NCBI RefSeq assembly: GCF_002105155.1
Contig: NW_019028993.1
Location: forward strand, 620,001-684,000
Direction of reading: 5' to 3'
DNA length: 64,000 nt
Source: Lobosporangium transversale
Lineage: Eukaryota
In this document: positions 4,355 to 64,000 of the stretch, in pieces
Layout of the letters: each line of letters begins with the position of its first letter
Numbering within the stretch: position 1 is the first letter of the stretch
Translations under genes and position numbers: made by a program
The notes under the pieces: model-generated
Database searches by the model: none
What the model was told of the DNA's origin: nothing
The model's input: the letters and a program-made list of their open reading frames with translations, nothing else

Positions 4355-5656
4355 CTAATCCAAATCCATACCCATGATTTTATCCTCCAGTTCTTGGACA
4401 TGGGAATCGTCGTTTGCAGAATCATGGGAGGCATAGCCATCGTCTTCCTTATCGTCATCAATCTCTGTAATGCGTGCCGTGAACTCTGGCGTATCATCAT
4501 CCTCATAATCAAAAGATGAGCTCAAGAATGTTGGTGGAGGTCGACGGTACAAGACCAGCTCGTTACCTTGAACATCACTCAGTTCAGGAGTAGTATTATA
4601 TCGATTCAACCATTGCTTACGAATCAGTGCATCAACCCCATCAGCAAGTGTCACGGTTTTGGGGCCCTCGTATCTAATCAAAGCGCCAAGGTCAGCTTGA
4701 GAGGGTTTGGGTGTTTGAGGTGTTGCATTGTCCCAGTTATCTTGGTCCATCATCATGGATGATTCCGATTGGTCATCCCGATAGGTGTTTGAATTAGAAT
4801 ACTGAGAAAACTGTCCATGGTTATCATCATCACTCGTACGATCTTTCTTGGTGGTGTTGGACTGGAGTTCATTCCGAGGTTCTGAGATGATCTCAAGTGG
4901 GCTGTCATCACCATCCCCACTGTCTCTGCTGCTGCTATTATCCATGGATCGATGGATCCGGCTTCGTTTATATGGCGAAGGTAATGAAGGTGCATGATCC
5001 ATTACTGGTTTTAGCGTCCCATCTTCTAAAACATCAAAGATTTCGCGTAGTGAATCTGCGGACGAAAGAGAGTCTGCAGTACTCTCGCGGCGACGTTTGT
5101 GTTCTTTTTCGCCCAAATGAGATGATGACAACTCTTCTCCTGAAGAAAGGTCAACGATACGCACATCGTTACCTTGAGATCTTCTGGTATATTTTGGCAA
5201 AAGTGGGGGCCTACGAGGAGTAGAGGACAAAGGGTTTGACTCTTTTAATGTAGTTGGGGTCGAGGACAACCGGTCAGAGCTTGTTGTGATATTGTTTGGG
5301 ATATTGTTATTAGTAAGGATAGTGGGATCTGTAGCAGTAGCAGAACGGCGAAGTTTCTTGATAGGATGAGGCCTCGGTAAGGTGGAAGACGGCTCATTCA
5401 ATGAAGCATCGAGAGCGGCATAAAACTCTGGCTCAAAATGGAAAGATCGTTTTCTTCGTCCGGTATCCATGTTGTTGTGCTCAATGTGTGGTGGTGATTG
5501 TTGGCCTGGTTCCTGCTCATATGGCTGGTGAAAAGACTGAGGATAAACTGACTGCTTTTCTCTTTGAAGCAAGTCTTTTTGTGTAATCATGTGGTTATTG
5601 AAGGGGCTATACTTGTGTGATTGAAAGGGGTCTTGGATAGGTCTTTGTGCAAACAT
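4355..5656 (-). CDS. Hypothetical low-complexity protein with basic NLS-like patches and an acidic C-terminus
   Basis: Long uninterrupted ORF; first ATG gives MFAQRPIQDP. No family recognised. Confidence 0.7.
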   Translation of the reverse strand: MFAQRPIQDPFQSHKYSPFNNHMITQKDLLQREKQSVYPQSFHQPYEQEPGQQSPPHIEHNNMDTGRRKRSFHFEPEFYAALDASLNEPSSTLPRPHPIKKLRRSATATDPTILTNNNIPNNITTSSDRLSSTPTTLKESNPLSSTPRRPPLLPKYTRRSQGNDVRIVDLSSGEELSSSHLGEKEHKRRRESTADSLSSADSLREIFDVLEDGTLKPVMDHAPSLPSPYKRSRIHRSMDNSSSRDSGDGDDSPLEIISEPRNELQSNTTKKDRTSDDDNHGQFSQYSNSNTYRDDQSESSMMMDQDNWDNATPQTPKPSQADLGALIRYEGPKTVTLADGVDALIRKQWLNRYNTTPELSDVQGNELVLYRRPPPTFLSSSFDYEDDDTPEFTARITEIDDDKEDDGYASHDSANDDSHVQELEDKIMGMDLD

Positions 5657-19839: not shown

Positions 19840-20074
19840 AAAATGACAGCATCAACATTAAGGAAGGATCCAAATCGCCAAACCGTCGTTCGTCAAATGA
19901 GGTTTGCTTTTATTTGATGGACGCGTCTCTGAAATCGTGAATCGGACCAATAGTTTTTTTTTTTTTTTTTTTCATTACGCCAGGTTGAAATAGCCGACGT
20001 ATTTTTGCATAGTTATTGGAATTCATTCGACAGAACTTTTCGCAGCTGGTGACTTACCTTTTTTTTGACATACA

Positions 20075-20414
20075 AAATATACCTCACGTCGGTTTTTGCA
20101 AAAGTAAAAAATCGGTAAGTTACTTACGGGTTTCTTACCTCTGTATACCTCTGCGATACCGATTTCTTACCTCTGCGATACCGCTTTCTTACCTCTGCAA
20201 AAAGTTTACTCCAAAAATGGATAACAGCTTCTTCTTATTTGCATGTATATGCTGGGTCCCTATATATGCATAACTTGCGCTTGGTTCTTATATACATATA
20301 TATATATACTTACTGATTTTTACTCGAAATATACCGATGTTTAAGTAAATAATAAGTAAAAATTTACTGAAAAACTTCAAGTACGAATGTTCAGTACATC
20401 AGTACAGGTCACTG
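20075..20414. mobile_element. hAT-family MITE/terminal fragment (same family as 27389-28704)
   Basis: ~20088-20295 is near-identical to 27465-27665 (TTTCTTACCTCTGCGATACCG subterminal repeats). Ends in GTACATCAGTACAGGTCACTG, similar to the hAT right terminus GTACATCAGTACGAAACACTG. Confidence 0.75.
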
Positions 20415-27388: not shown

Positions 27389-28704
27389 CAGTGTTTCGTG
27401 CTGATGTACCTCCATACCTGAATCCGGTAAAATAAACCGATTGTGGCGTACAAAATTTACCTAACATCGGTTTTTGCAAAAGTAAAAAATCGTTAAGTTA
27501 CTTACCGGTTTCTTACCTCTGCGATACCGGTTTCTTACCTCTATGATACCGATTTCTTACCTCTGCAAAAAGTTTACTCCAAAAATGGATAACAGCTTCT
27601 TCTTATTTGCATGTATATGCTGGGTCCCTATATATGCATAACTTGCGCTTGGCTCTTATATATACATGGTATACACGTCAGAACAAAAAAAAAAACTTTT
27701 GTTATAATTTCTTATCTCGTTATGAAATGAAAAATCCAATCCTAATTTGCTTATTGATATTAAAAATGGTAAGCCTCTAGTTCAAGTGCTTGACGACTGG
27801 GTATGTCGACTTGAAAAGCGCCATCCTGGTGAAAACATAAGAACTTAAACTAGCTCTTTTGTCAGTTAGGATATTCCCTGCAGTACTGAACAGCCGTTCA
27901 CTTGCGACCGACGTGGCTTGGACGCTCATACATACGCGGACAATTGGAGCTAAGGACCCCACATTGTAGTGATTGTGGGACCACCAGCTCACCAGGCTAC
28001 TCTTGTATTCCTGGCACGCCTCCACTGTGCTTTCAGTTAATAACTTGTATTCTGTAATACGGAACTGCAAGTGGCGGGTGTGAGCCTCATAGCTCCAGAC
28101 ATCGTCAAGGTAGAGTCGCATACCACTATCTAACATGCGCTTCTGAGCTTGGCAGATAAGGTGTTCGACTTTGCTCCCAAGGGTTTCCGGTCCGGTGCTG
28201 TGTTGCGATTAGCAGTCATTTACATGGGTTTTTACTATAGCTAAGATTTTTACCCTTTTTATTTAACGAAGATCCCCAGATCATAATAAACATCTTTCTT
28301 TCGTTCTCGTTACTTATTATGATCCTGGCATATTTCATGCTGGCACCATCGTCAGAAACATCATCCTGGCTCTCACAACTGAACATCGAGTGGTGAGTGA
28401 AGGCAGGATTTAGGAATGCTGCGATCAGAATTGCCCTTCATGTCGCCATAAATTATCATGCAAACCAGAAGAGATTGCTATCCATTTTTGGAGTAAACTT
28501 TTTGCAGAGGTAAGAAAGCGGTATCACAGAGGTAAGAAATCGGTATCACAGAGGTAAGAAACCAGTATCGCAGAGGTAAGAAACCGGTAAGTAACTTAAC
28601 GATTTTTTACTTTTGCAAAAACCGATGTTAGGTAAATTTTGTACGCCACAATCGGTTTATTTTACCGAATTCAGGTATGGGAGGTACATCAGTACGAAAC
28701 ACTG
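27389..28704. mobile_element. Complete non-autonomous hAT DNA transposon (1316 bp)
   Basis: ~210-bp terminal inverted repeats starting CAGTGTTTCGT and ending ACGAAACACTG. Perfect 8-bp TSD CTTGGAAG at 27381-27388 and 28705-28712. Internal hATC remnant. Confidence 0.95.
27777..28136 (-). pseudogene. hAT transposase C-terminal dimerisation-domain remnant
   Basis: SWWS...VQATSVASERLFSTAGNILTDKRASLS is the hATC motif. The catalytic N-terminal part is absent. Confidence 0.85.
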
Positions 28705-35478: not shown

Positions 35479-35955
35479 ATTACCTCTCAAGTATGAATAG
35501 AAGACATATATATCGCCAATTTTATTTGGTCACGATACCTTATATTTTTAATCTAAAAACGATGATTGAATTGTTCTGGTGGCATCTCACTACGTGACGG
35601 ACTTGCAACAATACTCGTAACAAGCGAGCTAATTGGCTGCCAATACACTCGAAAGTATTCAAAAAATATAAGGTATCGCGACCAAATGAAACGGGCTATA
35701 TATACATGTATATATATATTTATTCATGTACTTCGTGATGACACGTTGTTTGTATGAATAATTACAACAAAAACTATCCTGAAGCGGGTGCTCCGTTCCA
35801 TACATTCCCTTAGTCTGCCTTGGGCGTAGCAGCATCAACTTTGATAGATTGGTCACCATGGACAGCCATGACAAACGGTGCAGAACGAAGAGGAGTATCG
35901 AGCATAGATGGTAACAATGAAGCTGCACTCTGTCTTGCCAACTGTACTATAATAA

Positions 35956-35994
<39 letters not shown>

Positions 35995-41816: not shown

Positions 41817-43192
41817 GTGGCTCCGACCTTAGGCTGATGACGAGCCTAGCAAAACACTAGACTGACTGTGGACGACTGTGAACGAAGTCACGAGTCGCCC
41901 GTCTAATAATACCTATCACATAGATGGCCAATGTATCGATGGGAAACAAACCGGTCTTTATTGAAATGATGCTGCATGAAATACCATCGACTAGAGCATC
42001 AAAGAACATTCACAAATATTCGACGGCATTTGAGCAAGCAATAACGTATCTTTTTCATAAACAAAAAGGGTACTTAGCTCTAATCAGCTCATAATTTCAT
42101 GTGAATATACGTATATTTGAAAAGTATCTAAAAAGAGGAGTATCTGGCTTACTTATTCATTCTTCCTATTGAAAAGAACATCGAGAAACCGCAATCAATG
42201 GATTGGAAAGAAGAAATCGATCCAAATCGAGCGGGAGTGGGATACTTTTTTATCTCATCGAGGGCGACCACAGCTCATGCCCTCAGAATATACTACCAGG
42301 AAAAAATATGTCAACGCCTTCCTCTCTGCCGGTATATCCTTTTCGTTTCCTAAGAGCCATTTATATAAGCGCTGTTCATACTTGACACCAATAAAGCTCT
42401 CGTCTTCCTCTACGGTACTTCCAGCTTTGTTATTTATTGAAATAGCAACTCTTTTATTTAAGCATAGTTTTGGAGGTGTGTTTTAACCAAATTTGATCCG
42501 ATCGTATCGAAGTTCATGTCTCTAGATGCCGTGATATTAGTTTCATAGAATAACCTCTATCCCCGAAGCAGATGTGCTGAGAAAGAGCACCGAATATTCA
42601 TATGCTTTTTTATTTTATTCTTCGGTTGGCATCCCAACCGACAACACCTTGACACTGGCAAATAGTAGAAAGTTGGAGCTACCGAATGCTATGAATACTA
42701 ATAATAGTAAATAACAAAGCAAGTACTACAAAATATTCGTTAAAATCATTCTGTCATAATTAGGCTTATAGAAGTGATAGCTATTCACTTGATATTGCTT
42801 TCGGATGGCAACCACATGATCTGAAATCTACTATATGGCGCATTGGCCCTATTTCTTAGAGGAGCGAATCCTTAGATCATGAAGAAGTTGGACCATTGCT
42901 AGGCGATATCCAATGTCAATATTTTAAATGTCATATGATTATTAGCCACTCATTCGCAACATGACTACCTCGGGGATAAAGTTAATTCTGATTTGGATAC
43001 GATCGAGTCAGATCTAAAGCAAAGGATTAAAAAAAACTATATCAGTAGTGATCCAAGTGGAAAGTACAAGACGTACCAATGACGTTGAGGAAGGTTGGGG
43101 CTTTATTTGTGCCAAGCGTGGTCCATATTTCCATAGATGATCTCTAAGAAATGAAAAGAAAAAAAAAAGTCAGCAGGTAGGAAAGCATAAAC

Positions 43193-43325
43193 GAGGAAAA
43201 AGATGGTTAAGGAAAACATGCATGAGGAAAAAGATAATTAAGGAAAACGTGCACGAGGACAAAGATGGCTAAGGAAAACGTGCACGAGGAAAAAGATAAT
43301 GAGGAAAAGATGCGCAAGGAAAAAG
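43193..43325. repeat. Purine-rich minisatellite, ~31-bp unit x4
   Basis: GAGGAAAAAGATRRYTAAGGAAAACRTGCAY-like unit repeated in tandem. Confidence 0.75.
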
Positions 43326-49220: not shown

Positions 49221-50480
49221 TTACTCCGTCTTGGGCTTAGCAGCTTCATCAACTTTGATGGCCTGGCCACCAGGGACAGCCATGACAAATGGTGCAGGGC
49301 GAAGAGGAGTATCGGGCATAGGTGGCAACAATGAGGCTGCGCTCTGCCTTGCCAATTGTGCCATAGTGGCGCTATTTATTTTTGAAAAAAAGTAAAATAT
49401 TGATGTGGTTAGATGAAATCGCGTAAACAGACCTACGCGTGAAATAAAAATCAAATGAATATTTTAGACTTACTCCATAATCACCAAAGCTGCCATGGCC
49501 TCAACGATGGGTGTGGCACGTGGAACCACGCAGGGATCATGGCGACCACGTGTTGCCAAGACACCATCCACACCATTGTAACTCGTTGTCTTTTGTTCTT
49601 GGCTGATGGTTGCAGGAGATTTGAAACCGATTCTGAAATAGATATTTTCACCATTCGAGATTCCTCCTTGGATCCCTCCCGAGAAATTAGTCTTGGTTCC
49701 CAAGATCTTTTGGCCCTTACGACTGACCTTTTGGACCCATGCGTCATTATGCAAATGTCCCGGTACCTGTGTGCCTCCAAATCCTGAGCCAATTTCAAAG
49801 GCCTTTGTAGCTGGGATCGATAACATTGCATGAGCAAGCTTGGCCTCCAATTTATCAAAGCATGGCTCTCCAAGTCCTGTGGGCACATTACGGATCACAC
49901 AGGTGACGGTTCCTCCGATCGAGTCATTTGCCTCCTTGGCTTCAATGATGCGCTATAAAGGTAGAAAAAAGAAAAAAGAAAAAAGAAAAACAGAGTGAGA
50001 TGATGAATCATAAGACAGAAAATATAACGAGCTCTTTTTTTTTTTTTTTTTTTTTTTTTCCTCCTTCCGCTTTATTTATATTACCTGAGTCATCTTCTTG
50101 GAAACTTCCTTATCGGGGCATCGAGTAGCTTCCTGATCGATTTGCTCTCGAGTTATTGTGTTCAACATCTCTACAAATTGTTCAGAAGGAACTCCGTTCT
50201 CGTTTTGTTCCTCAATAAAGGGCATGGCGATCTTACCGACTGATGACACGAATGCCACAATCTCAGTACCAAATGCTTCCTTTAAGAACTTTTCCGCAAC
50301 CGCTCCAGCAGCCACGCGACCTTTTTTTTTTTTTTTTTTTTTTTTTAGAATAAAAATAATAAACAAATATATAAATATATAAATAGATAAAAAAAATAAA
50401 AAAAAATAAAAAGTTGGCATTCTTCAGATCATTTTTGTTTTTGTTGGGAAATTTCTCCTTCCTTCGAACCACAAGGAAAT

Positions 50481-51449: not shown

Positions 51450-53701
51450 CTATACCGAAAAGTTGCCAAGGAGCTCCGGTACCTGAACTTCGCCCTTGTT
51501 GATCTTCTCCAAAGTCTTGATCAGATCAAAATTAATCTTTTCGGACACAACCGAATCCTTCTTATAATCAGGATGGTTCTGTACAAATTGACGGATCCAT
51601 GAGGCTGCTGTCATCAATGTTCCATTCGCACGCTTCTTGATCAATTCAAGATATTTGCTAATCTCACATCGTGTCTCAATATCAATGTTCAATGTGTTCA
51701 AATAATTGTTGACTAATCCCAGCAGTCCAGGGAATCCCTTTGCTGGATTGCCATTGATGATCTCATCAATCGTCATCAGTTCATACTCATTATCCACTCC
51801 TGCGGAAGGTTGTTGTTGGTGATGGTGATGGTGGCTACTGTTGCTGTTGTCTGTATGGGCTGGATCCTGTTCGTTGATAGTTGTCATATGAGGTACTGTC
51901 GCATGGGTTACACGGGGTGATCCAGAAGGGGTTCCTGAAGCTGGTGTGCTAGGTCGCGACTGAGGGAAAATTTGTTTACGGAAATGGAACTTTTCTTGAA
52001 GAACGGCGTTTCTATGATGGGCGACCTTCATGTTCTCATCAACCTAACAACAAGTTAAATTAAAATTAGAATATTGTTTAAAAATGTATCTAACCATAAC
52101 CATACCTTATTGTCCCATTAAACAAAACAAAAAACAAAAAAACAAAAAAAAAAAAAAAAAAAAAAAAAATTACCTTGGAAATAGGAATATAAAAGTTGGT
52201 GTTGAAGCTTAGTACAGCACGGGTGACCAAGACAATGAAGATCGCAAAGGCTGCATTCTCAAAATCTGTCAACTGAATCTCCATTGAGCGGAACTCGACA
52301 CGCCAACCAATAGGACTGGTCTTTGAAGGTGGGGGTTTGAAACGCATGGTTTGCCAATTGGTACTCTGTAAATTCTCGAAATGGTCTGTGCTCTCGTTAT
52401 CGTCCACATTCAACAACTCATGGAAAATCACCAAGGGATCACGGATGAAGAGATGTGAGATATGGCGAGCCAAGAGATCATCAATGCCATTGTCGGAAAG
52501 CTTTTTGTAAATGTCCTCGTCGTAGACCAAGGGTATGTCGTTGTACTCAGGCTTGTAGCTGGGGTCATTAGAGATGTACGAGTCTATCGAATCATAACGT
52601 GATTTGGGGATCCTGTACTTGTTTTCTTTGAGAGGCTATTAATATCAAAAAAGTAACAAATAAATAAATAAATAGACAAATAAACAAAAACAAGTCGAGG
52701 TGATATGAATAAAAAAAGATGTGAGATGGTGCAGAAATGGTGCCATTTGACGTTCCACATGGACAAATAAAAAAGATTTTGGTAAAGGAGTACAGTAAAG
52801 AATGCAATAAAAGTCCATGTGTCACACACAGCATTGATCAAGTAAAGCCCTTTTTTTTTTTTTCCTCTCTTTCTTTTCCGAGATCAGGCGGAGTTTTTTT
52901 TTTTTTTTTTTTTTTTTACCTTGAGTCCACGCTCTTCTTCGGTTCTGTCATCTACGGATTGAGCAATCACATTCCATCTACAATCAACATCACTCAAATA
53001 TCCACGATAAATGGGAGCAGCAGCTGTCAAGGCCAACATGATGGGGCCCAATGGCGCCATTTGATCATAGATCTTGCGTGCCTCATCGACATTGACCGCC
53101 TGAAATGTGATCTGTAGACAACAACATCCCATGCCAAAAGCCATAGCGTCCATGTAAATATGATCTGGTTTGGCAGCTCCTTCTTCAATCGCATTCTTAT
53201 CCTCGGGATAGTCATTAAAAGTTGGGATAGTAGGATCGATAAAAGGTTTTGGAGTATTGACATCGTGGAAAATAGGCATATTGATTGCAACTTTGGATCC
53301 ACGGCGACGGCGAATATTGGCGGTTAAAGTTCTGGGAACATTAAGAAAAAAAATAAAATAAAAACATAAAAAGTTTAAACATTGCGCAGCATCCAATGAG
53401 TTTACTAATTATTAAAGAGAAGCAACTCACAGCGTGTATCCATTTTTTTTTTATAAAAAAAAAAAAAAAAACTTACGGGAATCGAGCGTGAGCATTAATG
53501 ATATCATCTGGGACAAAGAGACTGCGAGCAGCTGGACCATGTGGCTCATGATGGGGCTCAAGGAATTCTCCAGCACATCCAAGACGGGGATAAGATGTCA
53601 GTGTTACAGGGACCTCATTTGGCTTCATGAGCGAACGGGCCAGTTCACGTCTAAAATAAAGCAAATAGTTGTGGCAAGCAACAAGGTAATAAAGATTATG
53701 A

Positions 53702-53736
<35 letters not shown>

Positions 53737-54374
53737 AAAGCCATGATTCTAATCCTGACGGAGACTAAAAAGTTTTTTTTATCGATGCTTAAATACCGAA
53801 GTTTCATATTCCGTTCGACAGCCAACAGATCGCGAGGAAGTCCCATGTAGGGTTCGCCAGGAGTACCCTCCAACATGTAGCGACCGTATTCAGGATGCCA
53901 TGATGAGTCGACTAGCAATCTGAATGCAAGCATATAGTATAAAGCATAAAATTAAAGTAGAAAGGTAAACCCAAAAAGACGTGTGTCAGCAGGGTCATTG
54001 ATGATCATTGATGATCATTGAAGTACATGTAGTATACATGGATATGGATATGGATATGGATATAAAGGAGAGAGAAACGAGATGGCATTGTTGAATTACC
54101 TTTTGGCAGGATCGGTCATGGCTTCTTCCTCCTGTATGGCCAAATGCTGTAGGATCTCCCAGACACGCAAGCTGAGCTTGGCTCGCTGATTCTCCTCATC
54201 GAGACTGACAACGATATACTCGATCTCATCACCCCAGAGAAGACAATCCTTTTGTGAATCCTTGGTAGCCTCCCAGAGGTTCAGGAACTGGATGATACCA
54301 TGGGTTCGGACGTGGTCAGCATACTTCTTGGCCTCGTCCCAAGGCATGGGTGTTCCGAGTGATAAGAGACCCAT
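51450..54374 (-). CDS. GSH1: Glutamate-cysteine ligase catalytic subunit
   Basis: [74 protein letters not shown] and GWRVEFR. Multiple GT-AG introns. Confidence 0.97.
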
Positions 54375-55569
54375 TGTATGATGACTGTGACTATTTTAAA
54401 AAGAATATGAATATGGAAGAGAGAAAGAAAAAGAAAATAAAATAAAAGACAAGAGCCGTAAAAAGGTATAGATACAAGTGAAGGATTGAAAAGGTCGAAT
54501 GAATGAGTGAATGCGGAGGGGAATGAACGATCGAATGAAAGAATGAAAGATAAAAAGAATGAAAAAATGAAAGAAGAGGAAGAGAGTAAAAGACAAAATA
54601 ACTTTGAAATGAGTTTTATTTTTTCTGCCAATAGGAAAAGGGGTGCTGAAGGATGCATTAGTAATTGACCAGAAAATTTTTTCGATCAATTGACCTATTA
54701 GAGTTTTTTGGCACTGTAACAACGTCGAGCCAACGCAAGCTGCACGCGTACAGCAATACAACAATACAACAATACAACAAACAACAATCTTGTTCTCTTG
54801 AAGATGGGCCCTGGGAAACTTGTACATGTACATGTACATGTAAATAAGTAAGAAAAAAAAAAAAAAAAAAAAAGTCTAAATAAATGTTTTATAAACAGTA
54901 ATAGATCCCCTTTGTTAGATGACAACAGTAATCAAGAACAAGATAATGATTTGATTTCAGCCCCTTCTGGGAAACGCAACCGGACAACTTTTTTTTTTTT
55001 TTTTTTTTTTTGATTATAAAGCAAAACCAAAGCCGAGCTGCGCAAAGCAAGGGAAGGTTGCAATTGACGCTAGAGATAGCGTGTGATGGCGTTGACATGT
55101 ATGATGATCAGTCCAATAATATTTTTTTTTTTTTAAGTCTCCTTTGAGAGCCATGGCCTATCAGAGAGTCGGTCTATTATGATCGACGCATGTTCTCATG
55201 TTCTGCATAAAATAATCTATAATGGATTATGATGCCAAATCCAGTCCTTTTTCCATTTAAGGGTATTATGTTTCATGTCTGTGCGTACAAGACATGTGTC
55301 CGTTTTGTGGCTTTTACTCCGACACTTGTCCTGAAATTTGAATTGACATCAAATCCATCGAAATTTTAACAATGTCATCATGGCATGCTAAAGATCTCTT
55401 TCTTTCTTCTTTATTTCACGCCTTCATTCCTCCATACATTCATATACACAATAAAACAATAAAACCTACAATACACAGAGTAGACTTACCCTCTCCCCTG
55501 ACTAAAACTGAGAAAAATAACGGCACATTCGCATTTTCAAAGGTTCATTCCTGCTTGCTCACTTTCAAA

Positions 55570-58500
55570 ATGACAAACAACAACGAAAAGATTTTATCCA
55601 ATTTCACCTGCATGGATTTGGAACAAAGCACCAGTCAGACGAAGCCAACCAATTCAAGTACTCGCACTGGATCCACTCGTGCAACACCGAGGAGAAAAAG
55701 AGTTATTCTGACTGACGAAACGACTCCAGAGCCTTCACCAGTGGCACAGACTGCTAGAGTTAGTGCAAAGTCTTTTAAGCGCCCTAGGCGTTGTGAGGCT
55801 GATTCTTTATCCTCAAATGTCCTTCACTCCGGTCCATTGACAGAAGAAGAGCTGGCCCTGGCGAACGCACGGAAGGAGTCGGCGAGAAGTGTGCTGCAGA
55901 TGATTTTAGATGATCCAGATTCATCGACGACAGTGAATCAATATAAGACACAGCTCCGGCTGTGGGAGGTATGTTGGATCATCAAAATGTCGCTATGAGC
56001 TATCTCAGACAGGCTATCAAACTAGACGACTTGGCTAATTCTCTTTTTTGTTTTTAGCAATACTGCAATGAAAATTATCAAGGTGACTGTAGCGTCGATG
56101 CGAAACGCATGCTTGAATACTTCACAACGGTTGTCTTCAAGCGAACAGTAAAGCGATTGATCGGCACAGATCGTTGCTACCGTGGCGCTATTGGGTATGC
56201 CCAGCAGGGTGGAGGAGATTCTTCGAATTCTCAGGCTGGGGAAGACGCAGTCTATGAGGGAGAAGAGATCGACGAATTAGTCGAGGCAGATATCGACGAA
56301 CATGAACTAAGCGACATGGAGCAGAGACTGGAGACATTAGATAACAGCGAGCAAGTTGATGACGACGACGGCCAAAGCATAGACCAAGGTCAACAACAGG
56401 GACAGGGTCAGAGACAGGGTCAGGAACAGGGTCAGGAACAGGGTCAGGATCAGGATCAGGAACGGAGACAGGGTCAGGGGCAGGGGCAGGGACAGGAACA
56501 AGGACAGGAACAGGAACAGGAACAGGAACAAGGACAGGAACAGGAACAGGATGAAGATCTGGAGCTTCAGCTGAGGTCATTGGCACAGAGAGGTAAGAAG
56601 GCTCCTCCCTCCTGGGATAATATGGAGCCACCTGAAGGAGTCGACCCACATCAATGGCAGATTGATATAGCATTGAATGATGAGGAGCGAGCATCACATG
56701 AAGCTGTAACTGTTGGGGGTTCAAGCAAGAACATCACGCCGAAGCGGAAGACTGCAGCCGTTATCAGGACTGAAAATGAAAGAGAACAAGGTATGTAAAG
56801 ATAACCATGTATTAATATATAAATTGTTATACAGTACTGGGATCCAAACCTTTGGGAAGGCTCCGCCATCACGCGTACCCCAGGTGACAAGACACCATGG
56901 CCGCAACTCAGTGTTAATTATCAATATAAATAGCCTACTAAATTATGACTTAATAAACCATTCCTTAATCCTGCATCCACCTTAATGTATCTTTGATTGT
57001 TACAATTTACACTAATGGTTGATACTTTTTATTATATATACAATTTTTTTTTTTTTTTTTTTTTTTGGATATACTTTTGCGTTTGTAGTTATCCTGCAAG
57101 CACCAGAGGACAAACATGGCAGCAAAATTGTCTTTGTTCCTCTCACGCTGGGGACAGTCGCAAATGTTAAGAAGGCTTTGCAATACTTATGGAGGCAACA
57201 GTCTTCTTCGACAGCTCCGTATCCCAATCCCGCCCCAAACCCAAGAACGGATGTACCACTAGCGGAGGCGATCAAAAATTATGGAGAGAAACTTGTCCAT
57301 CACAAAGTAACGACAGGCACCTTATCTCGCACTGCCACCTGTGCCGTACGAGAACCTTACAACACTAAAATGTACCTGCGTATGTTGGCCTTTACATGGC
57401 GCATGCTTCCGACGGTTGGAGTAAGCGGCAGGCGACCTTACGACAGTGTTACAAGATTTCAGTATATGAGGGAGAGGCTATGCCTCCTTGCACGCCATCA
57501 TATGTTGCTGCGGGATGAGGACATCCGAAACTTGAACCTGGCTAACACATTCAATATTCAGACCCGTCACCCCGCGCCAGGGTCAAAGCTGGCGTCGGGG
57601 CTTGTCTTCTGCATCACACGTGGAAAGACAAACCATAAAGGTGTCGAACTCTATGCGACAGCTTATCGACATAAGCTGTTCTTAAGGTGCACCGTGGGCG
57701 GGTTTGCATTTTATATGCTAGAACGGTTCCAGGTAAATGATGCCGTCAGTCTTGACGCGAGCGTATGATTTTTTCTCATTCAATTACACGAAGTGACATA
57801 TATCCTTATTTTTTTTTTTTTCCCTATTGTAGGTGTTCAAGGAGCCTCTTCCCAATTTTGCGGACCCTGACGAGTGGTACAGCATCAAGGTGCTAACAGG
57901 GGGTGGAACAAGCCAAGAACGGTTAGAGAACCGAAAGGAAGCGCTTGTTGGCCGAACCCAAATGAGCACTACGGCGGCTGTAATGCGTGCCTGCGACGTG
58001 CATTCGGCCAAAATTACGCACTCTGGCCGACATGCAGGGGTCTCGGAAGCCTACGAAAGAGGCTTAAGCCTGGACGATATTCGCCACTTGGGAAGGTGGG
58101 TCATGGGGCAAATGGAGAACTTCTATGCTCCAAAAAACCCAACCAGGGGCGCTTTTTGTATGGCTCAGTTTGGACCGAATGAGCCTTACTTTATCGAGCG
58201 TGATTTGGTCACCCCGCCCTTAGAGCTCCAGCGTCTGGTCTTTCCTTGGATTGAGGAAAATTTTGATAAACATATGCCGGAGAGAGCTGACTCCTGGAGA
58301 GAGGAGTGCACCAAAGAAATGCTGGGGGTCGATCCAAATGTCCCGACAGACGAAGACATTTTTTGGACGCCAATCGAGAAGAAGACGAGCTCGAAACGAT
58401 TGACCCGTGCCTTCAGCACTGACTCCCTTGTTACACGCATTGGGTTCCTCAAACTTCTTGTGCGTATGAGGCGAGTAATCCTTCAGGATGCAGTGCTCTT

Positions 58501-59485
58501 TTTGAAGCCGAACGACAAGGGGAAAATGTTGGAGAACAAACTCCTCGAATCGTTACCAGAAATCTTTGGTTGCCAGCTCTTTCTGGATTTCCAACATCAA
58601 TTGCTTCGGGCCATCGACGTACATCGCCGACAAGCAGGCATCATCCAAGCGGATGTGCCAGTTAATGCGCAAACTATGGTAAGCGCCATTAACACGTTGT
58701 CGGTAGAGGCGCGGGTCTTTCATCAACTCCAGCATGAGACGGTCCAGAAGCTCGAGGCCCTATCCACCCTTGTGACAGAGCAACAGGAGCAACAGAGGCA
58801 GCAACAGGAGCAACAGAGGCAGCAACAGGAGCAAATCCACTTACTTCTCCAATCGCTGCAGCAGCAACAAAGCGCAAATGTGCGGCAGCCTTTTCCATAT
58901 CATGTGCAGTCTTGCCCGCCCTTTGTGTTTAATCCTTCTCCATTGGCGCCAGCACAGAGCCGCCTAGCTTCTTTTCCTTCGGTTCCTCAGGCTCCTACTA
59001 CGCAGGGCCTATATCAAGCTCGCCAGGCCGCTCCACCGCAACAGCAGCCATTATTTTCCAACCAATTGCCACCATGTCCTCAGCAACAGCATCCATATCA
59101 ACATAGCCATGTGCAGGCTCCAATGACCTCAGAGCAGACACAACGATTGCCGGAAGATGAAAGGTATAAAGGCTACCTCATGAAAGGCGATGGCAAGCAA
59201 TTGACGGTCAGGGAAGCATGGGATGAATTCCGTGGGCCCGTTGCTCAGGCAAAGCAGGAAAATCACAAATGGCCATTCACAGAGGCGCGTCACAAGGCAT
59301 TCAGGCGCAGGCGTCAATTTTTCGATCTGATAAAGAATATTGCCGAAAAACAGAAGCGAGACTTCGAAGAGGTAGTAGACGCACTGACAGCTCAGTACAA
59401 GGGTCGGACAATCAATTCCATTCGACTAGAGCTTCTGAAAGACACCGGGAATGACGAAGGCTGCCACCAAGATGCGGACGAGTAG
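55570..59485 (+). CDS. Crypton tyrosine recombinase (Ndc10 domain II-like YR + C-terminal GCR1_C-like DNA-binding domain), ~1142 aa, 4 exons
   Basis: Exons 55570-55968, 56058-56790, 57089-57732 and 57833-59485 splice in frame with GT-AG introns. Catalytic set: R (HMLLRDED), K (RGKTN), HxxR (THSGR), W (LGRW), Y (MENFY). Also FLKLLVRMRRVILQDAV and a C-terminal TVREAWDEF...W...FRRRR. Confidence 0.9.
56385..56550 (+). repeat. Coding microsatellite (CAGGAA/CAGGGT)n encoding a QGQE tract
   Basis: 6-bp units are visible directly; the same tract occurs in copy 2 (61229-61394). Confidence 0.9.
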
Positions 59486-59917
59486 ATGAGTAAGGGTAAT
59501 TTTTTTTTTCTTTTTTTATATATATATACATATATATATATCCTCGGATACAAATTTAAGCAATAAAGCACAAAGTAGTGATGGTGTCGGAAATACCAAG
59601 ACATGAACTGAGCTACAAGAAGCAGAAAACTGTTGGCTGCATCCTTGAGCCAAAAGAGGCTGAGAAAATACAATGTACAAGCAACCCATTGTCGTGAAAT
59701 TTGTGATATTCCAAGGTGTTTAGCATAAGTATCATCCAGGAAAAAGCATTATCGTCAACATTATTAACAAGACAAAACACCATCAAAGCACTATCAAAGC
59801 ATTTTTGACTCGACTCGGCTACCAACGCACTATAACAGAAATAATTGAATACTTCATCAATATAAAAACTGTCATGTTTAATCATTAACACTGTCTCTAC
59901 CATAAAAAGATTTTGTC

Positions 59918-59968
59918 TATTTCGCTTCACAAATCCATTTTGTGGAAAAAGATTTGTGAAGCGAAATA
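59918..59968. repeat. Perfect 18-bp inverted repeat near the Crypton right end
   Basis: TATTTCGCTTCACAAATC (59918-59935), a 15-bp spacer, then GATTTGTGAAGCGAAATA (59951-59968). Confidence 0.9.
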
Positions 59969-60045
59969 TAAAAATTTTGTGACTTGGTATCCTTCTGTGT
60001 CCACCTGTGTCCGCCTGTGTCCATCTGAATGGACACAGGTGAGCA

Positions 60046-60084
60046 ATTTCGTTTCACAATCTATAATGGATTATGATGCCAAAT
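60046..60084. other. Putative tyrosine-recombinase crossover site (attP/circle-junction-like) at the copy1/copy2 junction
   Basis: ATTTCGTTTCACAATC - TATAATG - GATTATGATGCCAAAT: 16-bp inverted arms (12/16 complementary) around a 7-bp spacer, located exactly at the repeat boundary. Confidence 0.7.
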
Positions 60085-63000
60085 CCAGTCCTTTTTCCAT
60101 TTAAGGGTATTATGTTTCATGTCTGTGCGTACAAGACATGTGTCCGTTTTGTGGCTTTTACTCCGACACTTGTCCTGAAATTTGAATTGACATCAAATCC
60201 ATCGAAATTTTAACAATGTCATCATGGCATGCTAAAGATCTCTTTCTTTCTTCTTTATTTCACGCCTTCATTCCTCCATACATTCATATACACAATAAAA
60301 CAATAAAACCTACAATACACAGAGTAGACTTACCCTCTCCCCTGACTAAAACTGAGAAAAATAACGGCACATTCGCATTTTCAAAGGTTCATTCCTGCTT
60401 GCTCACTTTCAAAATGACAAACAACAACGAAAAGATTTTATCCAATTTCACCTGCATGGATTTGGAACAAAGCACCAGTCAGACGAAGCCAACCAATTCA
60501 AGTACTCGCACTGGATCCACTCGTGCAACACCGAGGAGAAAAAGAGTTATTCTGACTGACGAAACGACTCCAGAGCCTTCACCAGTGGCACAGACTGCTA
60601 GAGTTAGTGCAAAGTCTTTTAAGCGCCCTAGGCGTTGTGAGGCTGATTCTTTATCCTCAAATGTCCTTCACTCCGGTCCATTGACAGAAGAAGAGCTGGC
60701 CCTGGCGAACGCACGGAAGGAGTCGGCGAGAAGTGTGCTGCAGATGATTTTAGATGATCCAGATTCATCGACGACAGTGAATCAATATAAGACACAGCTC
60801 CGGCTGTGGGAGGTATGTTGGATCATCAAAATGTCGCTATGAGCTATCTCAGACAGGCTATCAAACTAGACGACTTGGCTAATTCTCTTTTTTGTTTTTA
60901 GCAATACTGCAATGAAAATTATCAAGGTGACTGTAGCGTCGATGCGAAACGCATGCTTGAATACTTCACAACGGTTGTCTTCAAGCGAACAGTAAAGCGA
61001 TTGATCGGCACAGATCGTTGCTACCGTGGCGCTATTGGGTATGCCCAGCAGGGTGGAGGAGATTCTTCGAATTCTCAGGCTGGGGAAGACGCAGTCTATG
61101 AGGGAGAAGAGATCGACGAATTAGTCGAGGCAGATATCGACGAACATGAACTAAGCGACATGGAGCAGAGACTGGAGACATTAGATAACAGCGAGCAAGT
61201 TGATGACGACGACGGCCAAAGCATAGACCAAGGTCAACAACAGGGACAGGGTCAGAGACAGGGTCAGGAACAGGGTCAGGAACAGGGTCAGGATCAGGAT
61301 CAGGAACGGAGACAGGGTCAGGGGCAGGGGCAGGGACAGGAACAAGGACAGGAACAGGAACAGGAACAGGAACAAGGACAGGAACAGGAACAGGATGAAG
61401 ATCTGGAGCTTCAGCTGAGGTCATTGGCACAGAGAGGTAAGAAGGCTCCTCCCTCCTGGGATAATATGGAGCCACCTGAAGGAGTCGACCCACATCAATG
61501 GCAGATTGATATAGCATTGAATGATGAGGAGCGAGCATCACATGAAGCTGTAACTGTTGGGGGTTCAAGCAAGAACATCACGCCGAAGCGGAAGACTGCA
61601 GCCGTTATCAGGACTGAAAATGAAAGAGAACAAGGTATGTAAAGATAACCATGTATTAATATATAAATTGTTATACAGTACTGGGATCCAAACCTTTGGG
61701 AAGGCTCCGCCATCACGCGTACCCCAGGTGACAAGACACCATGGCCGCAACTCAGTGTTAATTATCAATATAAATAGCCTACTAAATTATGACTTAATAA
61801 ACCATTCCTTAATCCTGCATCCACCTTAATGTATCTTTGATTGTTACAATTTACACTAATGGTTGATACTTTTTATTATATATACAATTTTTTTTTTTTT
61901 TTTTTTTTTTTGGATATACTTTTGCGTTTGTAGTTATCCTGCAAGCACCAGAGGACAAACATGGCAGCAAAATTGTCTTTGTTCCTCTCACGCTGGGGAC
62001 AGTCGCAAATGTTAAGAAGGCTTTGCAATACTTATGGAGGCAACAGTCTTCTTCGACAGCTCCGTATCCCAATCCCGCCCCAAACCCAAGAACGGATGTA
62101 CCACTAGCGGAGGCGATCAAAAATTATGGAGAGAAACTTGTCCATCACAAAGTAACGACAGGCACCTTATCTCGCACTGCCACCTGTGCCGTACGAGAAC
62201 CTTACAACACTAAAATGTACCTGCGTATGTTGGCCTTTACATGGCGCATGCTTCCGACGGTTGGAGTAAGCGGCAGGCGACCTTACGACAGTGTTACAAG
62301 ATTTCAGTATATGAGGGAGAGGCTATGCCTCCTTGCACGCCATCATATGTTGCTGCGGGATGAGGACATCCGAAACTTGAACCTGGCTAACACATTCAAT
62401 ATTCAGACCCGTCACCCCGCGCCAGGGTCAAAGCTGGCGTCGGGGCTTGTCTTCTGCATCACACGTGGAAAGACAAACCATAAAGGTGTCGAACTCTATG
62501 CGACAGCTTATCGACATAAGCTGTTCTTAAGGTGCACCGTGGGCGGGTTTGCATTTTATATGCTAGAACGGTTCCAGGTAAATGATGCCGTCAGTCTTGA
62601 CGCGAGCGTATGATTTTTTCTCATTCAATTACACGAAGTGACATATATCCTTATTTTTTTTTTTTTCCCTATTGTAGGTGTTCAAGGAGCCTCTTCCCAA
62701 TTTTGCGGACCCTGACGAGTGGTACAGCATCAAGGTGCTAACAGGGGGTGGAACAAGCCAAGAACGGTTAGAGAACCGAAAGGAAGCGCTTGTTGGCCGA
62801 ACCCAAATGAGCACTACGGCGGCTGTAATGCGTGCCTGCGACGTGCATTCGGCCAAAATTACGCACTCTGGCCGACATGCAGGGGTCTCGGAAGCCTACG
62901 AAAGAGGCTTAAGCCTGGACGATATTCGCCACTTGGGAAGGTGGGTCATGGGGCAAATGGAGAACTTCTATGCTCCAAAAAACCCAACCAGGGGCGCTTT

Positions 63001-64000
63001 TTGTATGGCTCAGTTTGGACCGAATGAGCCTTACTTTATCGAGCGTGATTTGGTCACCCCGCCCTTAGAGCTCCAGCGTCTGGTCTTTCCTTGGATTGAG
63101 GAAAATTTTGATAAACATATGCCGGAGAGAGCTGACTCCTGGAGAGAGGAGTGCACCAAAGAAATGCTGGGGGTCGATCCAAATGTCCCGACAGACGAAG
63201 ACATTTTTTGGACGCCAATCGAGAAGAAGACGAGCTCGAAACGATTGACCCGTGCCTTCAGCACTGACTCCCTTGTTACACGCATTGGGTTCCTCAAACT
63301 TCTTGTGCGTATGAGGCGAGTAATCCTTCAGGATGCAGTGCTCTTTTTGAAGCCGAACGACAAGGGGAAAATGTTGGAGAACAAACTCCTCGAATCGTTA
63401 CCAGAAATCTTTGGTTGCCAGCTCTTTCTGGATTTCCAACATCAATTGCTTCGGGCCATCGACGTACATCGCCGACAAGCAGGCATCATCCAAGCGGATG
63501 TGCCAGTTAATGCGCAAACTATGGTAAGCGCCATTAACACGTTGTCGGTAGAGGCGCGGGTCTTTCATCAACTCCAGCATGAGACGGTCCAGAAGCTCGA
63601 GGCCCTATCCACCCTTGTGACAGAGCAACAGGAGCAACAGAGGCAGCAACAGGAGCAACAGAGGCAGCAACAGGAGCAAATCCACTTACTTCTCCAATCG
63701 CTGCAGCAGCAACAAAGCGCAAATGTGCGGCAGCCTTTTCCATATCATGTGCAGTCTTGCCCGCCCTTTGTGTTTAATCCTTCTCCATTGGCGCCAGCAC
63801 AGAGCCGCCTAGCTTCTTTTCCTTCGGTTCCTCAGGCTCCTACTACGCAGGGCCTATATCAAGCTCGCCAGGCCGCTCCACCGCAACAGCAGCCATTATT
63901 TTCCAACCAATTGCCACCATGTCCTCAGCAACAGCATCCATATCAACATAGCCATGTGCAGGCTCCAATGACCTCAGAGCAGACACAACGATTGCCGGAA
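60058..64000 (+). mobile_element. Crypton copy 2, truncated by the window end
   Basis: Appears identical to copy 1 except for one extra T in the intron-2 poly(T) (offset changes from 4844 to 4845). Confidence 0.9.
60414..64000 (+). CDS. Crypton tyrosine recombinase, copy 2 (3' end outside the window)
   Basis: Same exons as copy 1 (ATG 60414; exon 4 from 62678). Catalytic motifs are intact. Confidence 0.85.

Follow-up and report, generated by a model that had tools for sequence, protein, structure and literature searches.

An intact, probably recently mobile CryptonF element in head-to-tail tandem in Lobosporangium transversale

We analyzed a 64,000-nucleotide stretch of the Lobosporangium transversale genome (RefSeq assembly GCF_002105155.1, contig NW_019028993.1, positions 620,001 to 684,000 of the forward strand; hereafter the window), at the right end of which a Crypton, a tyrosine recombinase (YR) element, lies in tandem. 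Judged by its sequence, this is a real, intact and probably recently mobile CryptonF, whose activity is predicted. We consider it likely that the element's own recombinase created the tandem by joining a right end to a left end, most probably starting from a copy already at the locus.

Organization of the tandem

A 4844-bp unit at positions 55214–60057 recurs without any spacer from 60058 to the window end. As an earlier note on this DNA had claimed, the two units are nearly identical: over 3942 aligned bases there is no substitution, and a single extra T is found in the poly-T of intron 2. The same note had spoken of a tandem array; the head-to-tail arrangement stands, but the window shows only 1.8 units, and the length of the array is not seen.

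The left junction and the junction between the units both run on with an identical AATCTAT. Since this sequence at 55214–55220 is a direct repeat common to the host target and the element, the element proper is placed at about 55221–60064, with its left limit uncertain by 2 nt. This first copy is full length (4844 bp, plus strand). The second copy (60065–64000, plus strand) is cut by the window end, with exons at 60414–60812, 60902–61634, 61934–62577 and from 62678 onwards.

Seven public sequencing runs from four studies contain the stretch. Contigs of four of them (X1, X3, X4 and X7) were compared, and the junction was compared in X1, X3 and X7; X2, X5 and X6 derive from one sample with X1, and X8 contains almost no words of the stretch; X7 is taken as RNA-like by its skipped introns, no run being on record as RNA. 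Branch points in the X1 and X3 contigs fall at 60062/60063 and at 60064/60065. In the junction contigs, right ends all share the sequence through AATCTAT to 60064 and left ends all share it from 60063, after which they branch. The breakpoint of the duplication thus lies at the true element ends, as the earlier note required, with other copies branching into other flanks at these points.

The recombinase gene and its product

The gene is divided into four exons on the plus strand (55570–55968, 56058–56790, 57089–57732 and 57833–59485), whose GT..AG introns are predicted to splice to 1142 amino acids with a single terminal stop and none within. This bears out the earlier claim of a spliceable YR gene of that length with R-K-HxxR-W-Y. 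By homology, exon 2 encodes core-binding helices, followed by a low-complexity linker rich in Q, E and G. Exon 3 carries R519 (57511) and K557 (57625), and exon 4 carries H655 (58019), R658, W681 (58097) and Y690 (58124), which together give the full R-H-R-Y tetrad plus K and W. In a realignment of 115 chosen homologs, counting only the rows that cover each position, these residues are conserved in 74/76 (R519), 71/74 (K557), 94/100 (H655), 96/101 (R658), 98/101 (W681) and 93/100 (Y690).

Exon 4 matches the Pfam family NDC10_II above its cut-off (E 9.6e-11) and, at the C-terminus, GCR1_C at a borderline level below it (E 4.3e-4, 21 bits against a cut-off of 23). A Pfam scan of the four exons gave no other family with a meaningful score, and GCR1_C was not detected in homologs P0007, P0032 and P0033 (E 0.01). 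The family profile matched residues 714–938 of Ndc10 (E 6e-5) and, in a search of the PDB, again recovered Ndc10 (E 2e-23), whereas a phmmer search of the PDB with P0007 alone gave no match. The predicted model of P0007 (mean predicted local distance difference test score 77) matched the structures of Ndc10 (E 1e-5) and Tre/Cre (E 6e-4 to 1e-3). These matches, obtained through the profile and the P0007 model, are in line with the YR assignment made earlier. Named homologs belong nearly all to the Mortierellaceae, the best at 69% identity, and the database search returned no full-length copy of the window protein.

Introns 1 (55969–56057) and 2 (56791–57088) are skipped exactly in contigs of X7. 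No splicing of intron 3 (57733–57832, plus strand) is seen there, and its retention would lead to an in-frame stop. Its position is kept in relatives: homology stops and then resumes at this point in 10 of the 10 metagenome loci that reach it, which rules out the idea that some relatives lack the intron. Retention would yield a short protein with R519 and K557 and without the H-x-x-R motif, W and Y, which could act as a repressor. The third intron of the P element provides a parallel for a repressor made by intron retention. In L001, the closest relative, a palindromic repeat of about 180 bp (positions 90–285 and 1049–1246) is inserted in two introns, including intron 3.

Copies, flanks and derivatives

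With contig depth read as a rough proxy for copy number, the element ends lie at about 18–26 times single-copy depth in X1, X3 and X4, from three DNA studies (single-contig depths), and the interior of the full-length element at 10–18 times. Contigs spanning the head-to-tail joint have a depth of 791 in X1, against a single-copy depth of 87–126, and of 55 in X3, against 7–9. Joints thereby account for 35% (X1) and 32% (X3) of right ends, at about 7–8 times single-copy depth. The possibility raised earlier, that the tandem is merely an assembly artefact, does not hold for the joint, which is found in the DNA of two short-read studies. Joints thus exist as genuine DNA in this species. Dispersed copies exist too: about two thirds of element ends carry other flanks, and those listed comprise two left and two right flanks besides the joint. 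One right flank occurs in X3 and X7 and has no corresponding branch in X1, which hints that the insertion is polymorphic. The contigs neither assign joints to individual copies nor give the length of the array at this locus.

A derivative without 58098–59610 is present in X1, X3, X4 and X7, at 5–8 times single-copy depth in the first three. It loses W681, Y690 and the C-terminal region with the borderline GCR1_C match; both window copies have this stretch (plus strand) as far as seen. The derivative is about 3.3 kb long and non-autonomous, with both ends intact, and one X7 contig links the deletion to a right flank also present in X3. A more diverged copy in X7, covering window positions 57861–58359 and 58477–59551, differs by 20 letters and 6 gaps in 500 bp, which points to older subfamilies in that strain.

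At 55283, 55653, 55684, 57327, 58271 and 59685, both window units carry the same alleles, which are not the majority alleles of the X1, X3 and X4 contigs. The second unit was therefore likely derived from the first or from a common donor, as in a local self-duplication. For X1, the three listed pieces of host DNA (2183 nt) are identical to the window.

A predicted arm–spacer site at the joint

At the head-to-tail junction (60054–60076, plus strand), which is also the predicted circle junction, the arms TCACAATC and GATTATGA are complementary at 7 of 8 positions around a 7-nt spacer, TATAATG (60062–60068), with the core AATC-(7 nt)-GATT. Of all window positions, 0.12% have arms of this quality at spacer 7. 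The left junction (attL-like; 55212–55230, plus strand), which includes the AATCTAT at 55214–55220, combines a left arm supplied by the host (ATAATC) with the spacer TATAATG and the element arm GATTAT. The geometry is identical in L006, a 4.66-kb relative with both ends, whose direct repeat is AGTCTA and whose left junction reads AGTC, TATAACA, GACT. The two elements thus differ by a paired change on both arms, AATC/GATT against AGTC/GACT; exact 4-bp arms at spacer 7 are found at 0.5% of positions.

A further copy of the arm, inside the element, shows the matching change: it reads TTCACAAATC in the window and TTCACAAGTC in L006. It lies within a perfect 18-bp inverted repeat with a 15-nt loop (59918–59968), each arm of which approximates a copy of the terminal arm; these arms are likely to be accessory binding sites. 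At 59996–60041, TGTGTCC occurs three times together with one inverted GGACACA and a hairpin of 11–13 bp, and similar GGACA/TGTCC-like words cluster at the ends of relatives. Single-strand folding gave local hairpins (right end z −3.5 and −2.6) and no pairing between the two ends, and an attC-like folded site is thus not supported.

The arm and the first 2–3 nt of the spacer are all that element and target have in common. In X1, depth is 1250 for the 31-mer that includes one shared non-element letter ahead of the core and 900 for the one that includes three, which suggests that target choice depends on more than the direct repeat and that many targets share an arm extension. Host DNA contains the word TAATCTAT once in 55 kb, so that the genome would hold hundreds of half-sites. 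Given that half-sites are common and joints make up a third of ends, either two-armed sites must be preferred, or copies must return locally or have been amplified later; we estimate that the joint fraction is far above that expected from random choice among half-sites.

The search for other copies and their flanks that the earlier note had envisaged found about 20-fold depth and two further left and right flanks in the run contigs; GATT stands in register in one of the two right flanks. This GATT-bearing flank (X3 and X7) matches the left end of L006 at 11 of the 16 positions that follow the shared TAT (p about 6e-4, uncorrected for the nine comparisons made) and at 13 of 27 over the full length (p 0.015). 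On the strength of this similarity, the flank may be a sister element, which would make the arrangement a mixed-family tandem. The exact 27-nt right-end pattern had no match in metagenome contigs.

Three other relatives, L002, L003 and L004, supply one end each. At about 3045–3057 of L004, a sequence ending in AATCTAT resembles the right terminus of the window element, about 360 bp inside the likely right end. L007 has an 8-bp direct repeat (383–390 and 4857–4864) and a 10-bp inverted repeat (4892–4956), followed by GGACA/TGTCC-rich DNA; either its true right end is located beyond this point, or another element begins here.

Origin of the tandem

In X1 and X3, all left ends and joints keep the element spacer, and no right end carries the spacer into host DNA. 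Two-strand exchange over a mismatched spacer would be expected to give both outcomes, as is established for Tn916-type heteroduplex joints (PMC10214605). Because the element spacer is always kept at mismatched targets, the pattern fits, and suggests, one-strand exchange finished by replication. Under the mechanism we propose, recombinase monomers would bind the inverted arms (T/C)AATC...GATT around the 7-nt spacer, and strand exchange would occur within TA(T), on the left side of the spacer and its sole part common to element and target. The other strand would remain unexchanged or be overwritten, and replication would complete the reaction, leaving the element spacer at every left end and joint. 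A resident left junction, which has both arms, would outcompete a host half-site, and a copied-out circle or a sister chromatid would recombine there to give a dimer. Such dimers may grow longer in the same way or through homologous recombination. A circle returning to the donor left junction, recombinase-mediated exchange between sister chromatids, and homologous recombination between a circle and a resident copy all fit the observed structure.

A more elaborate version is possible, and we advance it tentatively: the site may be lox-like, with identity needed at 2–3 bases and one-strand copy-out/copy-in, and resident copies, including those of sister families, may be preferred targets. Tandem accretion would then resemble that of bacterial genomic islands, and joints may lock a circle-type promoter arrangement that boosts recombinase expression, as in Starships.

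Host homologous recombination may instead have made most of the joints, by crossing a circle with a resident copy at any point along it or by extending an old dimer through unequal exchange, with only the first joint due to the recombinase. We regard this as somewhat unlikely. The same single-core joint and identical neighbors would be expected, but a first joint could not be made in this way from a 7-bp repeat, nor could a joint between different families, if the X3/X7 flank is such a joint. Rather unlikely, in our judgment, is the Goodwin model, in which both strands are exchanged over a homologous overlap of 6–7 bp, here ATCTAT, a circle re-enters at the resident repeat, and the AATC/GATT symmetry is incidental. 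This model is simpler, also predicts the spacer asymmetry, and accommodates the direct repeat at both ends, as described by Kojima and Jurka 2011 (PMC3212892), the perfect AATCTAT of most X1 left ends, and the clean excisions reported for a Chlamydomonas CryptonF (PMC9977147). It predicts neither arms nor mismatches in the left repeat, however. ATCTAT has no flanking inverted symmetry, whereas the 7-nt spacer has arms in two families with a paired change, and left-junction repeats are mismatched in one copy of X1/X3 and one of X7 while right-junction repeats are not.

We think it very improbable that the joints in the reads stem from abundant free, episomal circles and that the tandem in the window is an artefact of assembly. 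Contigs do not separate a circle from a tandem, and the units are identical except in a homopolymer; yet the window joins host, unit and unit, both units carry non-majority alleles, and joints make up 32–35% of ends in two studies, compared with 36 junction reads against 6,959 terminal reads (0.5%) for the circle of the Starship Hephaestus (bioRxiv 10.64898/2026.09.21.753150). Almost no weight is given to the reading of the gene as a domesticated, Ndc10/Gcr1-like host gene that was caught up in an ordinary duplication of its segment: although the top Pfam and PDB matches are to Ndc10, we rejected this identity in view of the complete catalytic set and the multicopy state, with about 20-fold depth, many flanks, sharp ends and a deleted derivative.

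Several observations weigh against our preferred explanation, a joint made by the element's own recombinase. All run data are assembled contigs, from which rare variants are dropped and in which depth is no finer than a rough measure; X1 may be the window's own strain, and X3 and X4 may belong to one campaign. The joint contigs extend only 22–23 letters on each side of the core, less than a 31-letter bridging rule demands, because branches bound them. The second known right flank lacks GATT, the apparent ends of L007 show arm symmetry at only 2 of 4 positions with an uncertain right end, and the likeness between the X3/X7 flank and L006 was found after looking, with three ends and three lengths tried. 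At one left flank, a mismatch is indicated at spacer position 1, where cleavage at the edge of the arm should leave none, which means that the cut site is not fixed. The structural match belongs to homolog P0007 (44–54% identical) instead of the window protein, and the X7 contig continues into intron 3, so that a full-length spliced message is not seen there.

Comparison with known systems

By the tests run, the element is a CryptonF, on the strength of a YR with the tetrad, an Ndc10/Gcr1-related domain, a short direct repeat and interspersed multicopy occurrence, with GCR1_C borderline. The direct repeat, ATCTAT or AATCTAT, stands at both ends over several flanks, in keeping with the 4–6 bp expected of Cryptons, and the window element has no long terminal repeat. 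It shares with the CryptonF of fungi and oomycetes a single intron-containing YR gene, a length of 3–5 kb, a direct repeat of about 6 bp and the lack of long terminal inverted repeats, and may share their C-terminal GCR1_C-like domain (PMC3212892). Of the six fungal CryptonF entries for which a short repeat is given, five have one that ends in TA or TAT, such as CAGTAT in Rhizopus (PMC3212892), and the repeat of the window element likewise ends in TAT. Within the available text of that source, the table of Kojima and Jurka 2011 lists no Mortierellaceae host, and neither tandem joints, which make up about a third of the ends of the window element, nor an arm–spacer site are described (PMC3212892). 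Our literature search found no report on tandem Cryptons or on Mortierellaceae Cryptons; Repbase reports, subscription journals and the supplements of the Chlamydomonas and Starship papers lay outside its scope.

CryptonF-1_cRei of Chlamydomonas shares with the window element a short degenerate target, gene-proximal insertion and a gain of copies (PMC9977147). The targets differ, CAYCG in the former and (T)AATCTA(T) in the latter, and for CryptonF-1_cRei transposition with clean excisions was directly observed, whereas the activity of the window element is predicted (PMC9977147). The Starship Hephaestus resembles it in having a fungal YR, joined ends as a circle junction and a short target consensus, but its YR belongs to the DUF3435 family, it carries cargo, and its circle and integration have been proven experimentally (bioRxiv 10.64898/2026.09.21.753150). 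Starship identity was rejected, the window element having no DUF3435 match, a length of 4.8 kb and one gene.

In their workings only, bacterial strand-biased circularizing elements (SE elements) and integron cassettes offer a comparison, with imperfect inverted repeats around a short joint spacer, one-strand exchange and copy gain (PMC9345347, PMC10214605). SE elements have four proteins and a footprint of 6 host bases in the joint, whereas the window element has one protein and a spacer that appears to be fixed and element-derived (PMC9345347). It is not an SE element, given its one gene and a joint spacer equal to the spacer of its left end. Ndc10/Cbf2 of budding yeast shares its sequence profile and, through the homolog model, its fold with the window YR; the catalytic site of Ndc10 is not preserved (PMC3212892), whereas the window YR has all six residues in a mobile gene.

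The earlier note had further envisaged a phage-like integrase system. In the sense of an integrase that acts at a single site, this part is not supported: some two thirds of the ends join other flanks, and the target, a word common in host DNA, amounts to a short half-site. Helitron-type ends were rejected as well: there is no Rep/helicase, and the ends do not fit. None of 33 candidates from viral contigs and none of 11 from prokaryote genomes proved to be a relative.

Other features of the window

The element lies about 840 bp upstream of a divergently transcribed host gene for glutamate-cysteine ligase, of which part is seen at 52093–54374 (minus strand), and two introns of which are skipped in X7 contigs. 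Downstream of this gene, the start of a chorismate synthase gene (minus strand) extends up to 51169. Elsewhere in the window, an element of at least 1.3 kb at 27412–28680 has 154-bp terminal arms, 98% complementary and containing 22-nt subrepeats, and resembles a miniature inverted-repeat transposable element or a foldback element; a partial relative lies at 20063–20299. A 142-bp pair with 82% identity (35828–35969 and 49242–49383) probably represents paralogous exons, and a 31-nt tandem repeat occurs three times at 43179–43302.

Implications

The mechanism of Crypton transposition, including the proposed extrachromosomal circle, has not been demonstrated experimentally, according to a 2026 review (PMC13565253). 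The element described here brings together what a test requires: an intact gene with signs of transcription, defined ends, a non-autonomous derivative, and a natural copy of the circle junction, whose predicted arm–spacer layout the paired change in L006 backs. Since the joint likely marks the site at which the enzyme acts, the mechanism would become testable. As a tool, the recombinase would be a landing-pad-free integrase of low specificity, not a replacement for Cre. If the one-strand route is true, it would explain how the Cryptons of Chlamydomonas can both excise cleanly and gain copies. The fuller copy-out/copy-in scheme, if true, would bring to a eukaryotic transposon a mode that is known from bacterial integrons and SE elements and has not been shown for one.

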